Below, in pieces: positions 2,383 through 54,671 of a stretch of DNA of 64,000 nucleotides; within the stretch, counting starts at the first letter, position 1; every line of letters begins with the position of its first letter. A model generated the notes under the pieces. The model saw nothing but the letters and a program-made list of their open reading frames with translations, searched no databases and had not been told where the DNA came from. The position numbers and the translations under genes are program-made. Source of the stretch: Candidatus Aenigmatarchaeota archaeon (GTDB lineage: Archaea; Aenigmatarchaeota; Aenigmatarchaeia; PWEA01); NCBI GenBank assembly GCA_003554845.1, contig PWHK01000002.1, positions 3,538-67,537 on the forward strand. Reading direction: 5' to 3'.

Positions 2383-2479
2383 TGGCGTCCTCGGAGGGAT
2401 TTGAACCCTCGACTCCCAGCTTAGGAGGTTCACCTTCCGTTTGGAATCTGGTGCTCTGTCCAGACTGAGCTACGAGGAC
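2383..2479 (-). tRNA. tRNA-Trp(CCA) with a ~20 nt intron in the anticodon loop; CCA encoded
   Basis: Minus-strand RNA gtcctcg-ta-gctc...gagc-a-ccaga-ttCCAaa-[intron ~2420-2440]-gctgg-gagtc-gaggg-ttcaaat-ccctc-cgaggac-g-cca. Acceptor, D and T stems pair; anticodon CCA. The 97-nt length implies an intron of about 20 nt. Confidence 0.75.
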
Positions 2480-4874: not shown

Positions 4875-6320
4875 CTAAGGAGTTCTTTTCCATCTGGTTT
4901 TTCCTTCACTGTCCTCTATCTCAACGCCTGCGTTTCTTAGCACCTTTCTTACTCTGTCTGCTTCATCGTAATCCCCTTCCTTTCTCAGGTCTTCCCTTAT
5001 GTCTATCATAAGTTCAATGGCCTCGCTTGGTATTTTTCCGCCCTCGGTTTCCAGGTCCAGTTTGAGTCCCAGGACACCCCCAAGTTCCTGTATCTTTTCC
5101 TTTGCCTTGTTGAGGACTTCCTTACTGTTGTCCAGACCTTTGTTGACCTTTTTAGTGAACTTCATTATGCTGTTAAGTGCCTTGGGTGTGTCCAAGTCGT
5201 TGTCCATGGCCTCTTCAAACCTTTTTTCCATCTTTTCTATGTCCTTTTCTAGGTCTTCCTTGTCGCCGCCCTTTGCGTTTTCTATATTCCAGAGTGTGTT
5301 GTAGATCTTTTCGAGGTTACCTTCTACAGTTTCCAAGGCCTCTTCGTTGAAGTCCACCTGTTTTCTGTAGTGGCTGCTTGCAAAGAACATGCGCAGAACC
5401 TCAAAGTCATATTTTTCCAGTAGATCTCCGACGGTGTAGAAGTTGCCCTTGCTCTTGGACATCTTTTCTCCATCTGTTGTTATGTGTTCACTGTGCAGCC
5501 AGTAGTTTACAGGTTCTTCATCTAGATCTCCCATTGCTATGTTCTGTGCCCTTTCGTTTGGATGGTGTGGGAAGAGATGATCTATGCCGCCTGTATGTAT
5601 ATCGAACTTCTCTCCAAGGTATTTTGTTCCCATGACACTGCACTCTAGATGCCAGCCCGGGTAACCCTTTCCCCATGGAGAGGGCCACTTCATAAGATGC
5701 TCAGGATCTGCATTTATCCAGAGGGCGAAGTCAATCGGAGACTTCTTCTCCTCTGTTTCGTCTTCGCTTACACGTCCCCCTGCCCCTGTCTTGAGTTGCT
5801 CAATATCCATGCTTCCTATCTTTGGGTAGCCGTGCTTCCGATGGAACTTCATTACATCGAAGTATACTGTGCCGTTTATTTCGTATCCATATCCGTTCTC
5901 GATTATACTTCTTACGGCCTCTATCATCTCGACCATATGTCCCGTGGCCCTTGGGTTCACGTTGTGTCTTTTCATATTCAGAGATTTCATCTCTCTGTAC
6001 CACCTTTGGACCTGTTCCGTTACCAGTTCCATGGGTTCCAATCTCAGTTCCTTTGCCTTCTTTTCCACCTTGTCTTCTCCTTGGTCCAAGTCGTCTGTTA
6101 GATGTCCCACATCGGTTATATTCATTACATGGAATACACTGTATCCCTTCCATGTTAGGTATCTATTGAGAATATCCCAGGCTGCATATGTTCTTGCGTT
6201 TCCAACATGCATGTCGTCGTATATCGTCTGTCCACATGAGTATATCCTCACCCTTTTATCGTCTATGGGTTTGAATTCTTCTTTTTTCCGTGTAAGCGTG
6301 TTGTAGAGTTTAAGAGTCAT
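4875..6320 (-). CDS. cysS: Cysteinyl-tRNA synthetase
   Basis: Class I motifs HVGNARTY (HIGH) and KMSKSKGN (KMSKS); 481 aa. Confidence 0.95.
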   Translation of the reverse strand: MTLKLYNTLTRKKEEFKPIDDKRVRIYSCGQTIYDDMHVGNARTYAAWDILNRYLTWKGYSVFHVMNITDVGHLTDDLDQGEDKVEKKAKELRLEPMELVTEQVQRWYREMKSLNMKRHNVNPRATGHMVEMIEAVRSIIENGYGYEINGTVYFDVMKFHRKHGYPKIGSMDIEQLKTGAGGRVSEDETEEKKSPIDFALWINADPEHLMKWPSPWGKGYPGWHLECSVMGTKYLGEKFDIHTGGIDHLFPHHPNERAQNIAMGDLDEEPVNYWLHSEHITTDGEKMSKSKGNFYTVGDLLEKYDFEVLRMFFASSHYRKQVDFNEEALETVEGNLEKIYNTLWNIENAKGGDKEDLEKDIEKMEKRFEEAMDNDLDTPKALNSIMKFTKKVNKGLDNSKEVLNKAKEKIQELGGVLGLKLDLETEGGKIPSEAIELMIDIREDLRKEGDYDEADRVRKVLRNAGVEIEDSEGKTRWKRTP

Positions 6321-6331
6321 GTTACCACGAA

Positions 6332-6408
6332 TGGAGCCGGGCGCCGGATTCGAACCGGCGTACGCGGATCTGCAGTCCGCTGCCTAAGCCTGACTCGGCC
6401 AGCCCGGC
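6332..6408 (-). tRNA. tRNA-Cys(GCA), no intron, CCA encoded
   Basis: gccgggc-tg-gcc...ggc-a-gcgga-ctGCAga-tccgc-gtac-gccgg-ttcgaat-ccggc-gcccggc-t-cca. All four stems pair; about 66% GC. Confidence 0.9.
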
Positions 6409-16360: not shown

Positions 16361-16628
16361 GGCAGGGAACTTCCGGGTCGACGGAACCGACTGGAAAAGT
16401 TTACCTGTCTTCCTCCTCGGCTCTGCTACCCCCCGAACATCCATACTACAGCTTAGGGCTGCTCCCGCCAGGGCCTGGCCCGTTTCACTGCACCATAGAT
16501 CCCGGAGGACAGAGCTTCGACGTTGGAAAACAGGGCTTTTCCAGCCGGATCTGCCTGGCCGGCTCTTCGGTTGCTCTGTAGAGGATTTGAGCTCCAGATG
16601 ACCCCTAGCCATCCAACCTATCCCTGCC
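16361..16628 (-). ncRNA. Signal recognition particle RNA (7S/SRP RNA)
   Basis: GC-rich island. Minus strand contains helix-8-like GGUGCAGUGAAACGGGCCAGGCCCUGGCGGGAGCAGCC, compared from memory with the E. coli 4.5S GGUGCUG...GGAAGGAAGCAGCC motif. Terminal 8-bp helix ggcaggga/tccctgcc. TTTAAA about 23 nt upstream of the 5' end. Confidence 0.8.
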
Positions 16629-30899: not shown

Positions 30900-30948
30900 C
30901 TCCGAATATATCGAGTTATTTAAGTTTTTTTGTGTAAAAGTTTTCTCC

Positions 30949-31677
30949 ATGGTAAACGTAAATTGGGACAAAAACAGATATGAAGAAGATCCCGATACCG
31001 TTGTTTTTCTGGGTGGAGACCAGAGGGAGGGAGACGAACCCGGTATAGTCTTTCTACAAGGATCAGGCGTATCCAGAGACTACTACGAGTCCGTTGGTGG
31101 CTGCATAGAGGATGTTCTGGATACAGTGGACTCTTCTCTGGAGGTAAGGGATCTGAGATATTCTGAGAGAAGTCCCTATGATATATCCCCTGAAGAGATG
31201 GTTGAAGAGGCCCTTTTGGAAGAAAGGAGACAGGTCGATGGAAGGGAACTCAACGACCTTATGCAGAGTAGATTCAAAGGTGCCGATACAAAGTCCTTTG
31301 GTGTATTTGTTACAGATAAAGACATGACCATAGAAGGTAAATATAACTTTATACTCGGAGCCACAATGCCTGGTTACGTTAGCTCGCTTTCGACTTACAG
31401 GTTCAGAAATTTTGATGGCCTGGATCCTTTTATGAAGAGAGAGTCTTTCAAAAGTGTAGTATACCACGAACTCGGCCATCTGTTTGGAGCTACGGATGAG
31501 TTCAGAAGGGATGATCTCGTCGATAGGCTCGGAAAGCACTGTGGAAACAAGGATGTCATGAGACAGGGTGTAAACGTTTCTGAATGGGTTGACTACACGG
31601 AGGATAGGCTTGAGACGGGGATGGTTTACTGTAGTAGTTGTGAAGATGCAATGGTGGAGTATCTCTCTGGTCTATGA
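30949..31677 (+). CDS. Archaemetzincin-like zinc metallopeptidase
   Basis: HELGHLFG followed by Cys ligands (GKHCGN, YCSSCED), which is the archaemetzincin signature. Track ORF starts at 30829 overlapping IPK; start at MVNVNWDK is more likely. Confidence 0.6.
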   Translation: MVNVNWDKNRYEEDPDTVVFLGGDQREGDEPGIVFLQGSGVSRDYYESVGGCIEDVLDTVDSSLEVRDLRYSERSPYDISPEEMVEEALLEERRQVDGRELNDLMQSRFKGADTKSFGVFVTDKDMTIEGKYNFILGATMPGYVSSLSTYRFRNFDGLDPFMKRESFKSVVYHELGHLFGATDEFRRDDLVDRLGKHCGNKDVMRQGVNVSEWVDYTEDRLETGMVYCSSCEDAMVEYLSGL

Positions 31678-31724
31678 TTTTCTTTCCCTCAACTATTTTT
31701 ATTTCGACGTCAAAGTGTTTTATC

Positions 31725-33386
31725 ATGAAGTATTCTGATCTCTGCATTTACTACGAACGGCTGGAAGAAACAACGAAAAATCTTGAGATGAGGGACATAG
31801 TTGCCGAACTCTTCAAAGAGGTTTCCTCCGACGAGCTTGAGGTAATTGCCCTGGCAGCCATGGGGAGAATATACCCTTCTTCAGTTGACAAGGATGTAGG
31901 AATCGCAGGAAAGCTTATGCAGAAGATAATATCAAGGGCCTACGGCGCAACACAGAAGGAAGTCGTCGAGAAGTTCAAAGAAACAGGCGATCTTGGTAAG
32001 ACGGCAGAGTATTTCTGTAGGAATAAAAGACAGAGAAGTCTCATGAAGAAGGATATTACTGTGGAGAAGGTCTTCCGGAATCTCAGGAGTCTTTCGGAGA
32101 CCGTTGGAAGCGGCTCCGAGGGAAGGAAGGAGGGTCTTGTAAAGGAACTCCTGGTTTCTGCAGAACCCGTTGAGGCGCGTTATATAGTCAGAACAACTAT
32201 ACAGGAGATGCGCATAGGCGTAGGTGAAGGTACGGTGAGAGATGCAATAGCAAAGGCCTTCGGCGTTTCTTCGGATAAGGTTGAGGATGCTTATTTTAAG
32301 CTTATAGACTACGGTAAGGTTGCTAGAATAGCAAAGGAGGAGGGAGAAGAGGGACTCGAAGATATTGAAATAGAGGTAGGTAGACCTCTTATGGTTATGC
32401 TGGCCGAGAGGTCCGAATCGCTTGAACAGGCCTTTGGAGAATACGAAAACGTGGCCCTTGAGGTCAAACTCGACGGCTTCAGAGGTCAAATACACAAGGA
32501 CGGGGACAGGATAACGCTTTTTTCAAGGAGACTTGAGGACAAAACCGAGCAGTTCCCCGAGGTAGTTGAATGGGCAAGGGAATGTCTGAAACCGGATAGA
32601 TGTATAATAGATTCGGAGATAGTTGCCGTTGATGATAGCGGAAAGCCCCTTGTTTTTCAGAACCTATCCAAGAGAATCCAGAGAAAGTACGATATCGAAA
32701 GACTCAAAAGCGAAATCCCTGTTCAGGTAAACTGCTTTGACCTCTTCTTTGTGGATGGGGAGAACTATATGGAAAAAGATCTGAGAACCAGATGGAAAAA
32801 ACTATGTGAAATAGTCAAAGAGAAGGAGGGCAAATTCAGGCTTGTAGAGCACATAGAGACAGATGACCTTGAGGAGGCCAACAAGTTTTATCAGAAGGCC
32901 CTCAGGGAAAACCAGGAGGGACTGATGGTTAAAAATCTGGACGCATCATACCAACCGGGAAAACGGGTTGGCTATTGGCAGAAGGTAAAGGAAGTCATGG
33001 AACCCCTGGACCTTGTTATCGTTGAAGGAATATGGGGCGAGGGGAAGAGATCCAACTGGATATCATCCCTTATGCTTGCAGTCAGAGATCCCGATACAGG
33101 CGAGTTTCTTAAGACAGGTAAGATGGCAACAGGAATGACAGAGGAGGAGTTCGCCGAGATAACCAGAAAGATGGAAGATCTTATAGTAAAGGAGGAAGGA
33201 AGACGTGTTAAGGTAAGGCCAGAGCTTGTTGTGGAGGTCGGCTACGAGGAGATACAGAAGAGTCCTAAGTATAAATCAGGCTACGCCCTTCGTTTTCCCA
33301 GGATGATACGGTTTAGATACAACAAGTCTCCAGAAGATGCCGATACAATCGAAAGACTTAAAAATCTTTACAATAAACAAAAGTAA
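31725..33386 (+). CDS. lig: ATP-dependent DNA ligase
   Basis: KxDG adenylation motif EVKLDGFRGQIH. Nucleotidyltransferase and OB-domain motifs follow (LMVK, EGIWGEGKR). About 553 aa from MKYSDL. Confidence 0.9.
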   Translation: MKYSDLCIYYERLEETTKNLEMRDIVAELFKEVSSDELEVIALAAMGRIYPSSVDKDVGIAGKLMQKIISRAYGATQKEVVEKFKETGDLGKTAEYFCRNKRQRSLMKKDITVEKVFRNLRSLSETVGSGSEGRKEGLVKELLVSAEPVEARYIVRTTIQEMRIGVGEGTVRDAIAKAFGVSSDKVEDAYFKLIDYGKVARIAKEEGEEGLEDIEIEVGRPLMVMLAERSESLEQAFGEYENVALEVKLDGFRGQIHKDGDRITLFSRRLEDKTEQFPEVVEWARECLKPDRCIIDSEIVAVDDSGKPLVFQNLSKRIQRKYDIERLKSEIPVQVNCFDLFFVDGENYMEKDLRTRWKKLCEIVKEKEGKFRLVEHIETDDLEEANKFYQKALRENQEGLMVKNLDASYQPGKRVGYWQKVKEVMEPLDLVIVEGIWGEGKRSNWISSLMLAVRDPDTGEFLKTGKMATGMTEEEFAEITRKMEDLIVKEEGRRVKVRPELVVEVGYEEIQKSPKYKSGYALRFPRMIRFRYNKSPEDADTIERLKNLYNKQK

Positions 33387-33454
33387 TAGTTACTACAACG
33401 GAGTAAAAAAGTACTTAAGTGTGTGGGACGAAATAGGTAATAGGTTGTGATAAA

Positions 33455-34276
33455 ATGGTTGCATCTGAAGAAATTTTAGATCAGTTGAAAACACTTGGAT
33501 TAAATTCATATCAAAGGAAGCTATGGACCTCGCTTTTATCCAATGGAACTTCTACTGCAGGTGAACTATCGGATCTTTCTGATGTTCCCAGAAGCAGGAC
33601 GTACGACGTATTGGAAAGTTTAGAGGATCTTGGTCTTGTAAGAATACAGTCAGGAAAACCTATGAAATACATACCGGTTGATCCTAAGGAAGGTCTTGAA
33701 AGGCTCAAAAAGAATTACAAAAAAGAGTACGAAGAGATGAAGAATAAGGTCGACAGGTTGAAGAACAGCCAGACGTTCAAAGATCTGGAGAAACTTTACG
33801 AAACTGCAGTCGAATCAACCGATCCAGGTGAGTTTTCTGGAGCACTCAAAGGAAGGTATCAGATGCTTCAGCAGATCGAGTCCATGTTCAAAAAATCAAA
33901 GGACAGGGTTCATGTCATGACTTCGAAGGAGGGTCTCCGGGAGATACACAATAACCATATAAACCATCTCAGAGATGCAAGTGAAAGAGGAGTTGATATA
34001 AAGATAGCAGCTCCTTTAAACGGAGATTTAGAGAATATAGTGGATAAACTGTCTCAGTTTGCCGAAGTAAGGCATATCCCGGACAACGAAAGTGCAATAG
34101 GAAGGTTTTCGATCGTCGATGGAAACGAGTTTACATTTGCTCTGACGCATGAGAACGAGGTAGATCCTGCACAGGATGTTTCGTTCTGGTCTAAGAGCGA
34201 TCATGCAGCGAGGGATTTTCTTGAACCTCTTTTCCAGGACTACTGGAAGAAGTTGGATAAACCCAAAAGAAAGTAG
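33455..34276 (+). CDS. TrmB-family transcriptional regulator
   Basis: 273 aa. N-terminal winged HTH LGLNSYQRKLWTSLL...STAGELSDLSDVPRSRTYDVLESLEDLGLV, coiled-coil linker, C-terminal sensor-like domain. Confidence 0.75.
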   Translation: MVASEEILDQLKTLGLNSYQRKLWTSLLSNGTSTAGELSDLSDVPRSRTYDVLESLEDLGLVRIQSGKPMKYIPVDPKEGLERLKKNYKKEYEEMKNKVDRLKNSQTFKDLEKLYETAVESTDPGEFSGALKGRYQMLQQIESMFKKSKDRVHVMTSKEGLREIHNNHINHLRDASERGVDIKIAAPLNGDLENIVDKLSQFAEVRHIPDNESAIGRFSIVDGNEFTFALTHENEVDPAQDVSFWSKSDHAARDFLEPLFQDYWKKLDKPKRK

Positions 34277-34287
34277 CAGTCAAGCAA

Positions 34288-35160
34288 CTAGTTTCTAATA
34301 GAGTAGAGCTTTGGTAGATCTGTCTCTGTTGATCTATGTATTCTTCCACTTTGGGATTCTACATGATCATGGCTTCCCAGTAGAATTTCAAGTAGACCAG
34401 GGTCCTTTTTATATTCCTTAAATCTTACCGTTTCGTTGAAGTGGTTTTCGAATATGGATTCGGCTTCTTTTCTGCCTCCCATGAAGTCCACAAGTCCAAT
34501 ATCCTTGGCGTCCTTCCCTGTGAATATTCTTCCTCTGGCCACTTCTTCCAGATCTTGATCAGTTATGTTTCTGTTTGCAGATACTGTTTCTAAGAAGTCC
34601 GAATGTGTCTGGCCGAGAATATCCTTGAATACAAGTCTTTCCTCATCTGTTAAATTTTTGTATGGACTCCCCATTTCCTTCATGTCTCCTTCCTCGAGCC
34701 TTACGTATTCTATACCGTATTCATCCATGAGTTCTGTGTACTCCAGATAGGATGCTGTGACACCTAAGGATCCTGTTATTGTCAGGGGATCTGATACTAT
34801 CTTGTCACAGGCCGAAGCTGCCCAGTAGGCTCCCGACGTGGCATAGTCGTTGAACTGACATACCGTAGGTTCCCTTACTTCTGATATAACTTCCTCGAGC
34901 TGCCTCGATGCTACCACCGTTCCTCCAGGGGAGTTTATTTCAAAAAGAAATCCCTCCGCACCTTCTGATCTAGCCGTCGTTATTTGTTCTCTTACATTAC
35001 CCGGTGATGCTTCGAATGCTCCGGGATATATTGCCCCCCTTACAGGTATGACGGCAACCTCTGTGTCAAGAGGGGATCCTATACTTAGTAATATAAGACC
35101 TAGAAATACGACACCAAGGCCTGCCAGTACCGTTACAACTATCTTTCTTTTTTTCATCAA
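34288..35160 (-). CDS. sppA: Signal peptide peptidase SppA (S49 family)
   Basis: 290 aa. N-terminal TM anchor, SPGGTVVAS, catalytic region ATSGAYWAASACDKIVSDPLTITGSLGV. Confidence 0.8.
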   Translation of the reverse strand: MMKKRKIVVTVLAGLGVVFLGLILLSIGSPLDTEVAVIPVRGAIYPGAFEASPGNVREQITTARSEGAEGFLFEINSPGGTVVASRQLEEVISEVREPTVCQFNDYATSGAYWAASACDKIVSDPLTITGSLGVTASYLEYTELMDEYGIEYVRLEEGDMKEMGSPYKNLTDEERLVFKDILGQTHSDFLETVSANRNITDQDLEEVARGRIFTGKDAKDIGLVDFMGGRKEAESIFENHFNETVRFKEYKKDPGLLEILLGSHDHVESQSGRIHRSTETDLPKLYSIRN

Positions 35161-35199
35161 GAAACATTTGTTTTCTTTCTAATAAAAGGTTTTGTGGAC

Positions 35200-36891
35200 C
35201 TATTTTCCTGGTTTGGTTTCTCTGTTGAGTTCATCGATAAACTTGTCGGGATCAACACCGTACTCTACATCGTCCTTCCACATCCTCCGTACTGCCAAGG
35301 TTCCTTTTTGCTCCTCCTTGTCGCCTATAACAACTATGTACGGAACTCTTTCGATTTCGGCTTCCCTTACCTTTTCACTCAGGGTTGTGGAATCAAAGTT
35401 ACAGTCTGCCCTTATGCCTTCATCTCTGAGCCTTTCGAGAACCTCCTTTCCCTTGGATATGTTTCTGTCGGTTATACTCAGGACACGTACCTGAACCGGT
35501 GCCAGCCAAGTTGGAAGATTTCCGTTGGTATGTTCGAGAATTATTCCCAGAAACCTTTCAAGCGATCCGAGTATTGCCCGGTGTATCAGTATAGGTCTAT
35601 GTTCCTTGTTGTCCTTGCCTACGTATGTCAGATCGAACCTTTCGGGCATGGAGAAGTCCAGTTGTATTGTCCCACACTGCCATCTTCTACCAAGGGAGTC
35701 TTCTATATGGAAGTCTATCTTGGGTCCGTAGAAGGCACCGTCTCCTTCGTTTATATCGTAGTCGGAGCTGTTTTTATCGAGGACATCCTTTAAAATCTCC
35801 TCGGATTTGTCCCATATTTTTTCATCTCCTATTCTTTTTTCTGGCCTCGTCGATAGCTCTATCGAGTAGTCCAGATTGAAGGTACTATATATCTTATCCG
35901 TAAGATCCATGACTCCCTTTATCTCTTCCTTGAGTTGATCTTCCTTGCAGTAGATATGCGCATCATCCTGTGTAAAGCAGTTTACACGGAAGAGTCCCGA
36001 GAGCACACCAGATAGTTCTTCTCTGTAGACTGTTCCGAGTTCGCCGAAGCGCAGTGGTAGCTCCCTGTAGGACCGAGATCTGGACTTATATACTAGTATT
36101 CCACCAGGACAGTTCATTGGCTTTAGTGCCATGTCTCTTTCCTCATACTCTGTGGGAAACATATTGTCCCTGTATTTTTCCCAGTGTCCTGATATCTTCC
36201 AGAGCTTCTCATCAAGTACCATTGGTGTTGATATTTCTCTGTATCCTGCTTTCCTGTGCATCTCTCTCCAGAACCTCTTGAGTTCGTTCAAAACCCTCGT
36301 TCCGTTCTCGTGCCAGAAAACCATTCCGGGTGCTGTGTTGTAGAAGGAGAACAGATCCATCTTCTGACCGATTATCCTATGGTCGTTTTCCTTGAGGTCC
36401 TTTCTGTCGAGCTTTGTTTTTGAAATCTGACCAAGGAGCTTTTCGGGGTCTACCTTTTGCTCTACCTTTTCTCCTTCTGGTCTTATCTCCCTGCTGAGCT
36501 CCGAAAGAGGATGTCCCTTGACGTGTATTTCAAACTCCTTGTACCATCCGAAGGCCGATCTTGTAACCTCGTAGTCGTCTTTTAGTTTTTCTTCTAGCAT
36601 CTTTTGGCTTTCCATGGCCTTTTCAAGATCACCCGGCTTCGATGTGAGATGTACCCATGGATATATAACAATCCTGTTGGTCTTTACCTGATCCGCAACA
36701 TCCCTTATCTCCTTGTTGGCCTTTTCTATCACATAGGATATATCCTTCTCATCTCCGGCCTCGAATGCATTGAATACAACAAGACATTCCTCTATCCTCT
36801 TTGCCTCCTTGTCACACTCTTCGGCACTGTCCACGGCCTTCTTATGTGGCTGGAATTCCAGGTGGCTTGCGTGAAGTAGTAGTAACTTCAT
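35200..36891 (-). CDS. thrS: Threonyl-tRNA synthetase (archaeal type with N-terminal editing domain)
   Basis: 563 aa. Archaeal-specific N-terminus MKLLLLHASHLEF, class II motifs (FRNE.., HRAILGSLERF), anticodon-binding C-terminus. Confidence 0.9.
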   Translation of the reverse strand: MKLLLLHASHLEFQPHKKAVDSAEECDKEAKRIEECLVVFNAFEAGDEKDISYVIEKANKEIRDVADQVKTNRIVIYPWVHLTSKPGDLEKAMESQKMLEEKLKDDYEVTRSAFGWYKEFEIHVKGHPLSELSREIRPEGEKVEQKVDPEKLLGQISKTKLDRKDLKENDHRIIGQKMDLFSFYNTAPGMVFWHENGTRVLNELKRFWREMHRKAGYREISTPMVLDEKLWKISGHWEKYRDNMFPTEYEERDMALKPMNCPGGILVYKSRSRSYRELPLRFGELGTVYREELSGVLSGLFRVNCFTQDDAHIYCKEDQLKEEIKGVMDLTDKIYSTFNLDYSIELSTRPEKRIGDEKIWDKSEEILKDVLDKNSSDYDINEGDGAFYGPKIDFHIEDSLGRRWQCGTIQLDFSMPERFDLTYVGKDNKEHRPILIHRAILGSLERFLGIILEHTNGNLPTWLAPVQVRVLSITDRNISKGKEVLERLRDEGIRADCNFDSTTLSEKVREAEIERVPYIVVIGDKEEQKGTLAVRRMWKDDVEYGVDPDKFIDELNRETKPGK

Positions 36892-37047
36892 TTGATCAAC
36901 ACCTTATACTCAGGTCTGTTTAGATTTATAATTGTTTGGAATATGGACCCTGTTCTAGAAAGTTTCTCAATATGTAAAACGTCCACCGGACTTGTACCTC
37001 ATTTCAGACACACAGTTAAGATCTGTCGTCAGGATTTAAATATTTTA

Positions 37048-37485
37048 TTAATCGAGGTATACTGCTCTTTCCTTGAACTTCCGGGGTGCATCTTTGAGAA
37101 GCCTTATCTTTAGTTCGTGTGGTAGTATTGTATAGTCCTGGAGGTTATCTGCTTCTACAAACCTCACGTCCTCCAGTATACCTTTTTTGTTCTCCGTATC
37201 CTTAAGTGGTCTTGCTTCGCCGTCTCTGTACTCACACAGAAAAAAGAACTCCATATGGTGTTTTGTGCCGCCGAAAAAATCGTTGTAGTACACGGGTCTC
37301 TTAACCTTTACATCTACGTCTGTCCTTTTTTTGACAATCCTCTTTACGGATTCGTGTATACGTTCGCCTGCTTCTGCAGCTCCGCCGGGTGGAGTCCAGT
37401 AGGACATGTTGCCTTGTCTGTGTTTCAGGAGTAGAACTGAACCGCGCTTCGGTACTATTGCTGCGACCCTTGTCTTCAGTTCCAT
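37048..37485 (-). CDS. Nudix-fold protein with degenerate Nudix box
   Basis: 145 aa. Fold pattern VAAIVPKRGSVLLLKHR...WTPPGG. Box reads GAAEAGE-RIHESVK-RIVKKRTDV instead of GX5EX7REUXEEXGU. Confidence 0.65.
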   Translation of the reverse strand: MELKTRVAAIVPKRGSVLLLKHRQGNMSYWTPPGGAAEAGERIHESVKRIVKKRTDVDVKVKRPVYYNDFFGGTKHHMEFFFLCEYRDGEARPLKDTENKKGILEDVRFVEADNLQDYTILPHELKIRLLKDAPRKFKERAVYLD

Positions 37486-37549
37486 GGTTGAAACAAGACT
37501 TTCCCCAGTTAAATATTTTTAAGCTTGACTGTTCATTAGCTTACGGTGT

Positions 37550-37738
37550 AGCCCGGTAGTCTAGTGGTCAAATTTCCACATGAAAGGCTAAGGATGTCGG
37601 GCTTTGGACATCTGTTCAAAGCATTGAGCTATTGGCGATGAAAGATACCCGGCGACCCAGGTTCGAAGCAAGCCCTTTCCCTTCGGGAAACCCCTTGCGT
37701 TCCCTCCCGAGGATGCGAAAATCCTGGCCGGGCTACCA
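37550..37738 (+). tRNA. tRNA-Gln(UUG) apparently interrupted by three introns (D-loop, anticodon loop 37/38, T-loop 59/60); CCA encoded
   Basis: Exons: agcccgg-ta-gtct-agtggtcaa[19 nt]a-ggat-g-tcggg-cTTTGg[39 nt]a-cccgg-cgac-ccagg-ttcgaa[54 nt]t-cctgg-ccgggct-a-cca. A1:U72 and CUUUGGR loop match archaeal tRNA-Gln. T-arm halves ccagg/cctgg pair only across the 54-nt insertion. TATA about 35 nt upstream. Confidence 0.6.
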
Positions 37739-38464
37739 TTATTCACCTTTCTCTGGAAAGAAAGAACCGCAGACAGGTATTTCAGAAACAAAACAGACTG
37801 TGTTTTTCTGGAATCCGAACTTCATTGGATGTACTTCCAGTCCTTCATCCACTGCTTTCCTGAAGACCTCTGCGAACTCAGGATCAGTGTCTTCCTTGGG
37901 TGCGAAGCATTGTGCATCGGATCGGAATACCAGAACCAACAAAGCGGCTCTGTCACCGTTTTCCATGGCCTTCCTTAACTCTTCCACATGCCTCTTTCCT
38001 CTCTCAGTAGGAGCGTCCGGGAACAGTGCCACGCCGTCCTCCGCCAGCGTGCAACCCTTGACCTCCAACCATAGTTTCTCTTCGTTCATCTCCAGGAGGA
38101 AGTCTATCCTACTGTCACCTAATTGTACCTCTGGTGTTATGCCTTCAATCTCGGAATAAGGACTTATCCCATCGTCCTCAAGAATTCTTTCAGCTATCTC
38201 CCTATGATATCCTGAATTGACAAAAACCCAGTTCTCCTTGACTTTCCCGGCGATAAGGTCCCAGTTCGTCTTCCTGTTCTTGTTTTTGGCCTTCTTCACC
38301 AGAACTTTGTTCCCCTCGTAAAGTATTTCCTCTAAACGTCCAGGGTCACGTACATGGACTTCCTCCTTACCATATCCTTCTATTTCCACAGTTCCCAGAA
38401 AACGGTTCTTCCTCTCCACGAATCTACCTTCGGCATCCACCATTACCCCAAGAATCTTATTCAT
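37739..38464 (-). CDS. sfsA: SfsA (sugar fermentation stimulation protein homolog; nuclease-fold DNA-binding protein)
   Basis: 241 aa. N-terminal RFLGTVEIEG...VHV pattern and C-terminal PD-(D/E)xK-like region typical of SfsA. Confidence 0.7.
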   Translation of the reverse strand: MNKILGVMVDAEGRFVERKNRFLGTVEIEGYGKEEVHVRDPGRLEEILYEGNKVLVKKAKNKNRKTNWDLIAGKVKENWVFVNSGYHREIAERILEDDGISPYSEIEGITPEVQLGDSRIDFLLEMNEEKLWLEVKGCTLAEDGVALFPDAPTERGKRHVEELRKAMENGDRAALLVLVFRSDAQCFAPKEDTDPEFAEVFRKAVDEGLEVHPMKFGFQKNTVCFVSEIPVCGSFFPEKGE

Positions 38465-53291: not shown

Positions 53292-54671
53292 GTGGTAAAA
53301 GGTGAAACCATGCCAGAAAGAAATGATATTGATTCTAATGGACTGAAGCCTGATGAGACGTTTGTCGGTAAAGCCAAGGACTTCCGTTCCACAAAAAGAA
53401 AGATAAAGGACTTCCAGAAAAAGCGGAGAATGGATGCCGCCGAGAAGTTTAAGAAAGAGGCACTAGAGAAGCACGGCAAATATATCAATGCTATAATTGG
53501 AACAGGATCTGTTACCAGGGATGAATTCTCCTCGGAATCGGATCTTGATATAACGGTTTTTGTCGACGATACAAAGGAGGGTGTCGACAGGAAGAAGAGA
53601 AAGGAGATAGAAAAAGACCTCAAGGAAATAGCAGATGACTGCGGAAAGACTAAGTCTGGCAGCCACATACTACATGTTCAGCCACCCTGGACTATAACGG
53701 AGTACTGGGACATGATGAGGAGAGGAAGCCCTGTGGCACATTCCTGGACACAGGATGCTACTGCTTTCTACGACGAAGGATTTTTCGGTCCAATACAGAG
53801 GCTTTATAAGATGGGCAAGCTCCCGGCGACAAGGAAGTCTGCGGAGAAGAGAATGTCCAAGGTTCCGAAGAGGCTTAACCGTGCGGAGAGAATGAAGGTT
53901 CTCATAGTTGCAAAGGACATATACAATGCTATGACAAACTCTCTTCAGGCAGTTATTGTCTATATGGGCGAGGAGGTTCCTGCACCTAAGCAGCTTGCAA
54001 AGATAGCCAGGGAGGAACTGGTATCACGTGATCTCCTTGCTGAGGAATATGTAAAACAGTACGAGGAAGTTTATTCTCTCTACAAGGACGTTGAGCACAA
54101 CAACATAGATACAATGAAAGGTGAGAAGGTCGATGAGTACATAGACATGGGTAAGAAGTTTGTAAACGAGATGCAGAAACTCATGAAGAAGATAGAGATA
54201 AGTAGAAAGGCGAGAAAGATACAGTCAAACTACGAGTCTATGATAAAGACATCTGTTGCTGCTCTCAAGGCCCTGGACAAACTTCCCGAGGATCCAAAGG
54301 ATTTACCGGATGCATTCAACAAGCATCTCATAGAAGAAGAGCTAATAGATCCACGGTACAAGAAGACACTGGGTAAGGTTCTTGAGATGAAGAAGAAGCT
54401 CAACGACAAAGATGTGGAGGATATAACAGAGCATCAGATAAATGTTGCAAAGGACTTTGTCAAGGGATTTATGAGAGATATACATGGACTTCTCAAGGAA
54501 AGGGATCTCAAGCCAGAGGACATAAAGGAGAGTATGAAACCGAAGAATGCACCCAAGCCCGATGAAATCGACCCGGAAAAAAACAAAGACAGTTTCAAAT
54601 GCGATGAGTGTGGTAAGGATTTCAAGAGTGAGAAGGGTCTTAAGATACATAAAAGCCGGGTTCATGGTTGA
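53292..54671 (+). CDS. Nucleotidyltransferase-domain protein with helical body and C-terminal C2H2 zinc finger
   Basis: 459 aa. IIGTGSVTRDEFSSESDLDITVFVDD (GS...DxD). C-terminus FKCDECGKDFKSEKGLKIHKSRVHG. Confidence 0.55.
   Translation: MVKGETMPERNDIDSNGLKPDETFVGKAKDFRSTKRKIKDFQKKRRMDAAEKFKKEALEKHGKYINAIIGTGSVTRDEFSSESDLDITVFVDDTKEGVDRKKRKEIEKDLKEIADDCGKTKSGSHILHVQPPWTITEYWDMMRRGSPVAHSWTQDATAFYDEGFFGPIQRLYKMGKLPATRKSAEKRMSKVPKRLNRAERMKVLIVAKDIYNAMTNSLQAVIVYMGEEVPAPKQLAKIAREELVSRDLLAEEYVKQYEEVYSLYKDVEHNNIDTMKGEKVDEYIDMGKKFVNEMQKLMKKIEISRKARKIQSNYESMIKTSVAALKALDKLPEDPKDLPDAFNKHLIEEELIDPRYKKTLGKVLEMKKKLNDKDVEDITEHQINVAKDFVKGFMRDIHGLLKERDLKPEDIKESMKPKNAPKPDEIDPEKNKDSFKCDECGKDFKSEKGLKIHKSRVHG

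Follow-up and report, generated by a model that had tools for sequence, protein, structure and literature searches.

Does the segment at positions 37550-37738 of the forward (+) strand of a 64,000-nucleotide (nt) stretch of archaeal contig PWHK01000002.1 (hereafter the window, meaning this whole stretch) hold a working tRNA-Gln(UUG) gene split by several introns, or only the likeness of one? Read directly, the sequence contains four colinear exons within 189 nt with three insertions between them, and the locus is situated within a 253-nt gap that separates a NUDIX gene (37048-37485, - strand) from an SfsA gene (37739-38464, - strand). We conclude with high confidence that a DPANN host near Aenigmatarchaeota has here a functional tRNA-Gln(UUG) gene with three short protein-spliced introns. 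A sequence-only reading of the window had proposed such a gene, with one intron at the canonical site and two at other sites, and it is borne out by the isotype called by ARAGORN, by bulge-helix-bulge (BHB) or relaxed BHB motifs at three of three junctions and by comparative data.

The unspliced locus was recognized as a tRNA neither by default ARAGORN nor by the Rfam tRNA model, even at E ≤ 10, and ARAGORN with its intron search, which had been put forward as a check, likewise returned no tRNA match. When the three insertions were removed ARAGORN called tRNA-Gln(ttg), for a 76-nt and a 77-nt product alike, and the tRNA is thus visible only without them, as had been claimed. The cloverleaf of the spliced product had a perfect 7-bp acceptor stem, discriminator A and, as the sequence-only reading had listed, the pair A1:U72, the anticodon loop CUUUGGA, the T arm CCAGG-UUCGAAU-CCUGG and an encoded CCA. 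The predicted mature tRNA is 76 nt long with a 9-nt D-loop, AGUGGUCAA, and its exons and introns are arranged as follows.

37550-37571, + strand: exon 1 (tRNA positions 1-21), with acceptor 5' strand AGCCCGG, U8 and A9, D-stem 5' strand GUCU and D-loop AGUGGUCAA (ARAGORN cloverleaf).
37572-37591, + strand: intron 1, 20 nt, in the D-loop at 21/22, with a relaxed HBh' motif (BHB rule and homologues).
37592-37607, + strand: exon 2, with D-stem 3' strand GGAU, G26, anticodon-stem 5' strand UCGGG and anticodon loop C32-G37 (ARAGORN).
37608-37646, + strand: intron 2, 39 nt, at the canonical site 37/38, with a strict hBHBh' motif (BHB rule).
37647-37667, + strand: exon 3, with A38, anticodon-stem 3' strand CCCGG, the 4-nt variable region CGAC, T-stem 5' strand CCAGG and T-loop U54-A59 (ARAGORN).
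37668-37721, + strand: intron 3, 54 nt, in the T-loop at 59/60, with an hBH-type motif (BHB rule).
37722-37738, + strand: exon 4, with U60, T-stem 3' strand CCUGG, acceptor 3' strand CCGGGCU, discriminator A73 and the encoded CCA at 37736-37738 (sequence and ARAGORN).

The anticodon UUG occupies 37604-37606, with the wobble base U34 at 37604, and the exon 1 stretch is the same sequence as in an intronless homologue, L007 (loci outside the window carry L numbers).

Junctions were placed by the BHB rule, with a 4-bp central helix, a 3-nt bulge on each strand and a cut after bulge nucleotide 2 (motif description in PMC4033280 and PMC3728597, together with established knowledge). BHB or hBH motifs had been named as the check on the proposed junctions, and at all three a central helix with 4 of 4 pairs was found between two 3-nt bulges, the motif being strict at 37/38 only and relaxed in the T-loop and D-loop. 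Introns 2 and 3 have exactly the boundaries claimed in the sequence-only reading. The central helix of intron 2 consists of four Watson-Crick pairs, CUUU (37602-37605) with AAAG (37641-37644), its bulges are GG^A and AU^A, its inner helix pairs CAUC (37609-37612) with GAUG (37637-37640), and its outer helix runs for 7 bp through the anticodon stem; among homologues the inner helix covaries (CAUC/GAUG, UCUCAU/AUGAGA, UUCACAG/CUGUGAA). Intron 3 also has four Watson-Crick pairs in its central helix, UUCG (37662-37665) with CGAA (37716-37719), with bulges AA^G and AA^U, the 5-bp T stem as outer helix and an inner helix of 2 bp only, and the T arm folded at -21.6 kcal/mol when its T stem and central helix were enforced versus -22.4 free. 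Its interior forms the hairpin GCAAG..UUUCCC-UUC-GGGAAA..CUUGC and a small second hairpin; a hairpin had been claimed for the insertion and is there, but the loop given for it, ttccc-ttcg-gggaa, requires four Gs where the sequence has three. In intron 1 the central helix pairs GGUC (37566-37569) with GGCU (37586-37589), two of the four pairs being G.U, the bulges are AA^A and AA^G and the inner helix is UUUC (37573-37576) with GAAA (37582-37585). Placement of this intron at 37570-37589 or 37571-37590 yields the same product, and the D arm with its D stem enforced folded at -4.4 kcal/mol versus -5.9 free.

Homologues were collected by scanning species-representative genomes with an exact 18-mer from the tRNA 5' end and metagenomes with a pattern over the anticodon arm and canonical intron, the latter scan giving nine more family members; three of its matches (L013, L020, L022) and three from the genome scan (L004, L010, L011) were chance bacterial matches and were discarded. 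Intronless tRNA-Gln(UUG) genes were found in metagenome-assembled genomes (MAGs) of Pacearchaeota (L007) and Nanoarchaeota (L005), and both close exactly at the predicted junctions. The window product is identical to the Pacearchaeota tRNA at 65 of 73 positions, with all differences inside the anticodon stem. Intron 1 is precisely absent from both intronless genes and from the orthologues L012, L015 and L016, the 37/38 intron is absent from L005, L007 and L009, and the 59/60 intron from L005, L007 and L021; the tRNA-Gln gene of L009 (Bathyarchaeota) has the 59/60 intron only. An Aenigmatarchaeota MAG (L006) carries three introns at nearly the sites of the window, 22/23, 37/38 and 59/60; a placement of its D-loop intron at 21/22 gave 0 of 4 central-helix pairs and was rejected, a shift by hand to 22/23 giving 4 of 4 (GCCA/UGGU). 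L014 also has an intron at 21/22, with the same central helix as the window and a 10-bp inner helix. Over the window and ten homologues, the BHB rule gave 4 of 4 pairs in 26 of 31 introns and 3 of 4 in four more.

These homologues also bear on the extent of the D-loop insertion. Its presence had been predicted correctly, its length of about 19 nt (37572-37590) had not, and with that length falls the 77-nt product, which we correct to 76 nt, as a 19-nt intron would leave one extra A. The shorter insertion, with a 77-nt tRNA and a 10-nt D-loop, can draw on the run of A residues that leaves the junction ambiguous on sequence alone and on the tRNA-Gln call that ARAGORN makes for the 77-nt product as well. 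However, its strand-2 tetramer would be AGGC, and GGUC/AGGC contains a G-G mismatch, 4 of 4 pairs being obtained with 20 nt alone, and the homologues without a 21/22 intron (L005, L007, L012, L015 and L016) all read GG(U/C)CAAGGAU with a 9-nt D-loop. The boundary is therefore placed at 20 nt (37572-37591), the only length which satisfies the BHB rule and matches the D-loop of the intron-free homologues. An insertion that is never removed would mean a 29-nt D-loop. We know of no precedent for a D-loop of that length, and consider either version, the 19-nt intron or the retained insertion, quite improbable. The mature sequence would distinguish the two boundaries, reading AGUGGUCAAGGAU with the 20-nt intron and AGUGGUCAAAGGAU with the 19-nt one.

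The order ThrRS (threonyl-tRNA synthetase), NUDIX and tRNA is common to the window and five other loci (L012, L015, L016, L018 and L023), four of which come from a single soda-lake sediment metagenome and the fifth from a different metagenome. Their flanking genes have 69-79% nucleotide identity to the window. The mature tRNA without CCA is identical at 73 of 73 positions in the window, L012, L015 and L016 and at 72 of 73 in L018 and L023 (76/76 or 75/76 with CCA), while the introns vary in number, position and sequence. Upstream of the gene one further feature was recognized by conservation.

37510-37524, + strand: TAAATATTTTTAAGC, a putative promoter element of TATA/BRE type that lies 26-40 nt before the mature 5' end.

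This element is invariant across the six syntenic soda-lake orthologues and the rest of the upstream sequence has diverged; from its position and conservation it is likely a TATA/BRE promoter. An identical locus was present in four independent assemblies (ENA, two from Logan, and JGI), and it is therefore no assembly artefact.

How much weight the junction motifs can bear was estimated in two ways. At a junction defined by homology the chance of a 4/4 central helix is about 0.02, or at most about 0.06 when two or three equivalent placements are allowed. A de novo scan is unspecific, and the argument therefore rests on the homology-defined junctions; a BHB motif is informative only through its coincidence with junctions set independently by homology. 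In the more distant members compensatory changes also run across the introns, the T-stem halves changing together from CCAGG/CCUGG to CACGG/CCGUG and CGCGG/CCGCG, and the D-stem halves from GUCU/GGAU to GUGU/GCAU.

Several observations weigh against a spliced, functional gene. BHB-like motifs are common by chance, with 6 of strict type in the 189 nt versus 3.8 +/- 2.1 in shuffled sequences and 23 relaxed matches (19 of them non-strict) versus 20.6 +/- 6.8. With the three BHBs enforced the fold reached -49.8 kcal/mol versus an unconstrained minimum of -67.4, and since the BHBs are absent from the minimum free energy fold, unconstrained folding was dropped as a test for them. The 3' splice site of intron 1 lies in an internal loop with no clean bulge, and this intron has no contiguous outer helix. 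Splicing and the exact cut sites are predictions, the window is part of a genome in which a second, intronless tRNA-Gln(UUG) copy may lie elsewhere, and no EndA (splicing endonuclease) or RtcB (ligase) domain was found in any window open reading frame (ORF) of at least 90 aa.

Taken at their strongest, such points would describe a decaying tRNA pseudogene with three insertions, no longer processed to a functional tRNA: standard tRNA finders miss the locus, two of its three junction motifs are relaxed, and its BHB-constrained fold lies 17.6 kcal/mol above the minimum free energy. Decay does not agree, however, with exons that show 100% conservation among orthologues with just 69-79% identity in the flanking protein genes, with covarying stems, an invariant promoter element and a 4/4-bp central helix at each junction. 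Neither ARAGORN nor Rfam gave a second tRNA-Gln in the window, nor did a crude scan for T arms and acceptors, which revealed no further hidden tRNA genes there. Because the exons are conserved, the intron absences exact, the stems covarying and the promoter element invariant, both a pseudogene and a chance resemblance are very unlikely. That the insertions are self-splicing (group I/II) introns or mobile-element remnants is hardly credible, for although group I introns have been found in archaea (PMC6125680) and, within tRNA genes, in bacteria with small genomes (PMC13011429), the introns here are 20, 39 and 54 nt, far under the size of ribozyme introns (core of at least about 200 nt), with no Rfam intron match at E ≤ 10 and with BHB geometry at all junctions. 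A split or permuted tRNA gene was rejected, the exons being colinear within 189 nt.

With the gene thus read as a functional tRNA-Gln(UUG) gene with three BHB-type introns, the syntenic loci allow its intron content to be compared from lineage to lineage. By site it is as follows.

Window: no intron at 15/16; introns at 21/22, 37/38 and 59/60.
L012, L015 and L016: introns at 15/16 (about 60 nt), 37/38 and 59/60; none at 21/22.
L018 and L023: introns at 15/16, 21/22, 37/38 and 59/60.

L018 and L023 thus each seem to have a tRNA gene with four introns; at their approximate positions, L018:8063-8330 and L023:12569-12875, four BHB-type introns were placed in each, with central helices of 4/4 or 3/4 bp. 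A single long D-loop intron in these two loci was rejected, its central helix being mismatched, and the 3' end of the first of two introns there is the CAGGUGGGRCAA of L012, L015 and L016. According to a 2014 review a tRNA gene has three introns at most (PMC4033280), and the literature searched contained no archaeal tRNA gene reported to have four.

The 59/60 site is occupied by other introns in L006, L009, L012, L015, L017, L018, L019 and L023. Across the six syntenic loci three unrelated intron sequences were observed at this site, grouped as window/L016, L012/L018 and L015/L023, and these types are distributed mosaically relative to the D-loop introns. The 59/60 intron of the window (type a) is identical to that of L016 at 53 of 54 positions despite flanking genes of only about 69-79% identity, which suggests that the introns are under selection or that lineages have exchanged introns or the tRNA locus. 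Beside ThrRS no tRNA-Gln was found in four Aenigmatarchaeota-like contigs that are more distant, and the synteny therefore does not reach that far. An Aenigmatarchaeota MAG (L028, GCA_042215745.1) has kept the order DNA ligase, TrmB, S49 peptidase and ThrRS seen at 30937-37485 of the window; in this MAG tRNA-Gln does not adjoin ThrRS.

How the tRNA-Gln gene is transcribed, and by which enzymes and in what order it is spliced, we infer as follows. A single precursor of about 189 nt or longer would be transcribed from the conserved A/T-rich promoter about 30 nt upstream, and every exon-intron boundary would fold into a BHB, with its 4-bp helix and two 3-nt bulges on opposite strands. EndA, the splicing endonuclease of archaea, would cut after the second bulge nucleotide, making six cuts in total, and an RtcB-type ligase would join the exons into the 76-nt tRNA with its encoded CCA. 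On this analysis the host EndA must have broad substrate specificity, because two of the three motifs are relaxed. Such specificity is found in the (alpha-beta)2, epsilon2 and loop-bearing alpha4 forms of the enzyme, the last of which has been proposed for several DPANN lineages (PMC5829648, PMC3239211).

Family comparison revealed a conserved arrangement within the canonical intron.

37614-37641, + strand: antisense and kink-turn (K-turn)-like module in intron 2.

In the window the module comprises the antisense GUUCAAAGC (37614-37622), 1 nt, a box D'-like UUGA (37624-37627), the hairpin GCU-AUU-GGC (37628-37636), a 3-nt bulge GAU (37637-37639) and GA (37640-37641). The layout (N)CAAAGC, 1 nt, YUGA, hairpin, 3 nt ending in U, and GA was present in 11 of 11 family members (the window, L006, L012, L014-L019, L021 and L023), with a hairpin stem that varies by lineage in sequence and length (2-8 bp) and is lacking in L017, which has a K-loop. 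This layout fits the K-turn consensus of a canonical stem, a 3-nt bulge and tandem G.A/A.G pairs, and it also resembles a box D'/C' pair: the window reads UUGA ... GC-GAU-GA-AA and L019 reads CUGA ... AAU-GA-UGG, whose AUGAUGG is near the box consensus. The antisense pairs with G31-G37 and intron nucleotides 1-2 in a 7-9 bp duplex at invariant spacing to YUGA; intron nucleotide 1 covaries with its partner (A-U, G-C, U-A), and the wobble base U34 always has as its partner the fifth nucleotide counted upstream from YUGA. The module and BHB folds are mutually exclusive, because the BHB inner helix uses the K-turn bulge nucleotides, and both are backed by compensatory changes; in most members their energies differ by 0.7-4.2 kcal/mol, in L021 by about 7.8 kcal/mol. 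A K-turn motif in the 37/38 intron is likely on this pattern.

Whether the module has a function can be answered only tentatively. It is possible, though doubtful, that the 37/38 intron is a minimal cis-acting guide of box C'/D' type with a single K-turn, directing 2'-O-methylation of U34. In such a guide CAAAGC would pair with the anticodon loop, the adjacent L7Ae-type K-turn would recruit fibrillarin-Nop5, and U34 would be methylated by the N+5 rule, after which the RNA would refold into the BHB for splicing, coupling modification to intron removal. Ribose methylation at position 34 has been documented in archaeal tRNA-Gln (PMC7668247). Against a guide role, the 39-nt intron holds one K-turn-like motif only where two (C/D and C'/D') are required, and single-site C/D ribonucleoproteins were active yet site-unspecific in vitro (PMC1635284). 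By inspection no K-turn-like motif was seen in the other two window introns, and fibrillarin, Nop5 and L7Ae were absent among window ORFs of 90 aa or more. Just one intron-encoded guide is known, the full box C/D RNA of euryarchaeal pre-tRNA-Trp (PMC11408192, PMC4090602). That guide, described for Haloferax volcanii and other euryarchaea, directs Cm34 and Um39 (Clouet d'Orval 2001 and Singh 2004, as related in PMC11408192 and PMC4090602). According to those accounts it shares with the window intron an anticodon-loop antisense beside a box D'-like element and K-turn, position 34 as its N+5 target and mutually exclusive guide and BHB folds, and differs in being a full C/D and C'/D' RNA of about 100 nt in tRNA-Trp, whereas the window intron has 39 nt and one K-turn and lies in tRNA-Gln.

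Thermoproteales and a few other hyperthermophiles had been named as the main known setting of such genes, a context that does not apply to the window. Rfam placed an Archaea_SRP RNA at 16361-16628 (- strand, 129 bits), and the host is therefore archaeal; the window has about 44% GC and encodes acidic housekeeping proteins. The best named homologues of its ThrRS are from Aenigmatarchaeota at about 60% identity, and the host is therefore placed near that group. As judged from these features and from the soda-lake sediment metagenomes in which the orthologues occur, the host is a DPANN archaeon near Aenigmatarchaeota, from a soda lake, and not a hyperthermophile.

Some further observations concern other RNA genes and their surroundings. 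The window has a tRNA-Trp(CCA) gene (2383-2479, - strand) with an anticodon-loop intron of about 19-23 nt, missed by default ARAGORN and found by Rfam and by ARAGORN -i; the intron is far too short for the box C/D guide of euryarchaeal tRNA-Trp introns. A tRNA-Cys(GCA) gene (6332-6408, - strand) lies directly upstream of the cysteinyl-tRNA synthetase gene (4875-6320, - strand), a cognate pair adjoining one another. The 3' CCA is encoded in all three tRNA genes of the window (2383-2479, 6332-6408 and 37550-37738), and a 459-aa ORF with a nucleotidyltransferase domain (53292-54671) is possibly a CCA-adding enzyme. Rfam at E ≤ 10 on 37450-37850 returned only DdR13 (E 0.62) and NEAT1_1 (E 9.6), both chance-level. 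The former is a weak C/D-box snoRNA-like match (37782-37825, - strand, 16.4 bits) within the 3' end of the SfsA ORF, with AUGAAG at its start and CUGA at its end, and is probably due to chance.

Set beside known systems, the locus has all the testable defining features of an archaeal multi-intron tRNA gene; the gene type is known and the lineage is new. Multi-intron tRNA genes are known from Thermoproteales and other Crenarchaeota (Sugahara et al. 2007, 2008, in the account of them reviewed in PMC4033280). There too several BHB or relaxed introns occur per gene, up to three, with D-loop and 59/60 sites and intron turnover; in contrast, the window host is a DPANN archaeon of about 44% GC from soda-lake sediment, and the syntenic L018 and L023 appear to reach four introns. 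ARMAN-1/2 (Micrarchaeota, with epsilon2 EndA) and DPANN archaea with L3-loop alpha4 EndA likewise belong to DPANN and have relaxed hBH, HBh' and BHL motifs at non-canonical positions that require a broad-specificity endonuclease (PMC3239211, PMC3488258, PMC5829648), the window representing another DPANN lineage. A red-alga tRNA-Ile (PMC3728597) has nearly the same layout, its introns interrupting the D stem, site 37/38 and the T-loop, each with a BHB, but that is a eukaryotic nuclear gene of another isotype and independent origin, for which stepwise removal has been shown experimentally. Multi-intron tRNAs have already been reported for Thermoproteales, ARMAN, Nanoarchaeum and, in general terms, other DPANN, and tRNA disruption in DPANN lineages has been noted (PMC5829648, PMC4033280); no description of tRNA introns in Aenigmatarchaeota was found in the literature searched.

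With this locus a multi-intron tRNA with two non-canonical sites is on record for a mesophilic, alkaline-saline DPANN lineage near Aenigmatarchaeota, for which a splicing endonuclease of broad specificity is predicted. Default tRNA finders miss such genes, which is one reason why DPANN genomes seem to lack tRNAs (PMC5829648). What deserves follow-up is the changing intron complement and the possible minimal modification guide. The six syntenic loci, in which introns have been gained and lost at the fixed sites 15/16, 21/22 and 59/60 around an unchanged mature tRNA, make up a natural series useful for studying how BHB introns spread. The module in the canonical intron, if functional, would tie modification of the wobble base to intron removal in a very small RNA, and if it is indeed a guide it would be the second intron-encoded methylation guide known after that of tRNA-Trp, and by far the smallest.

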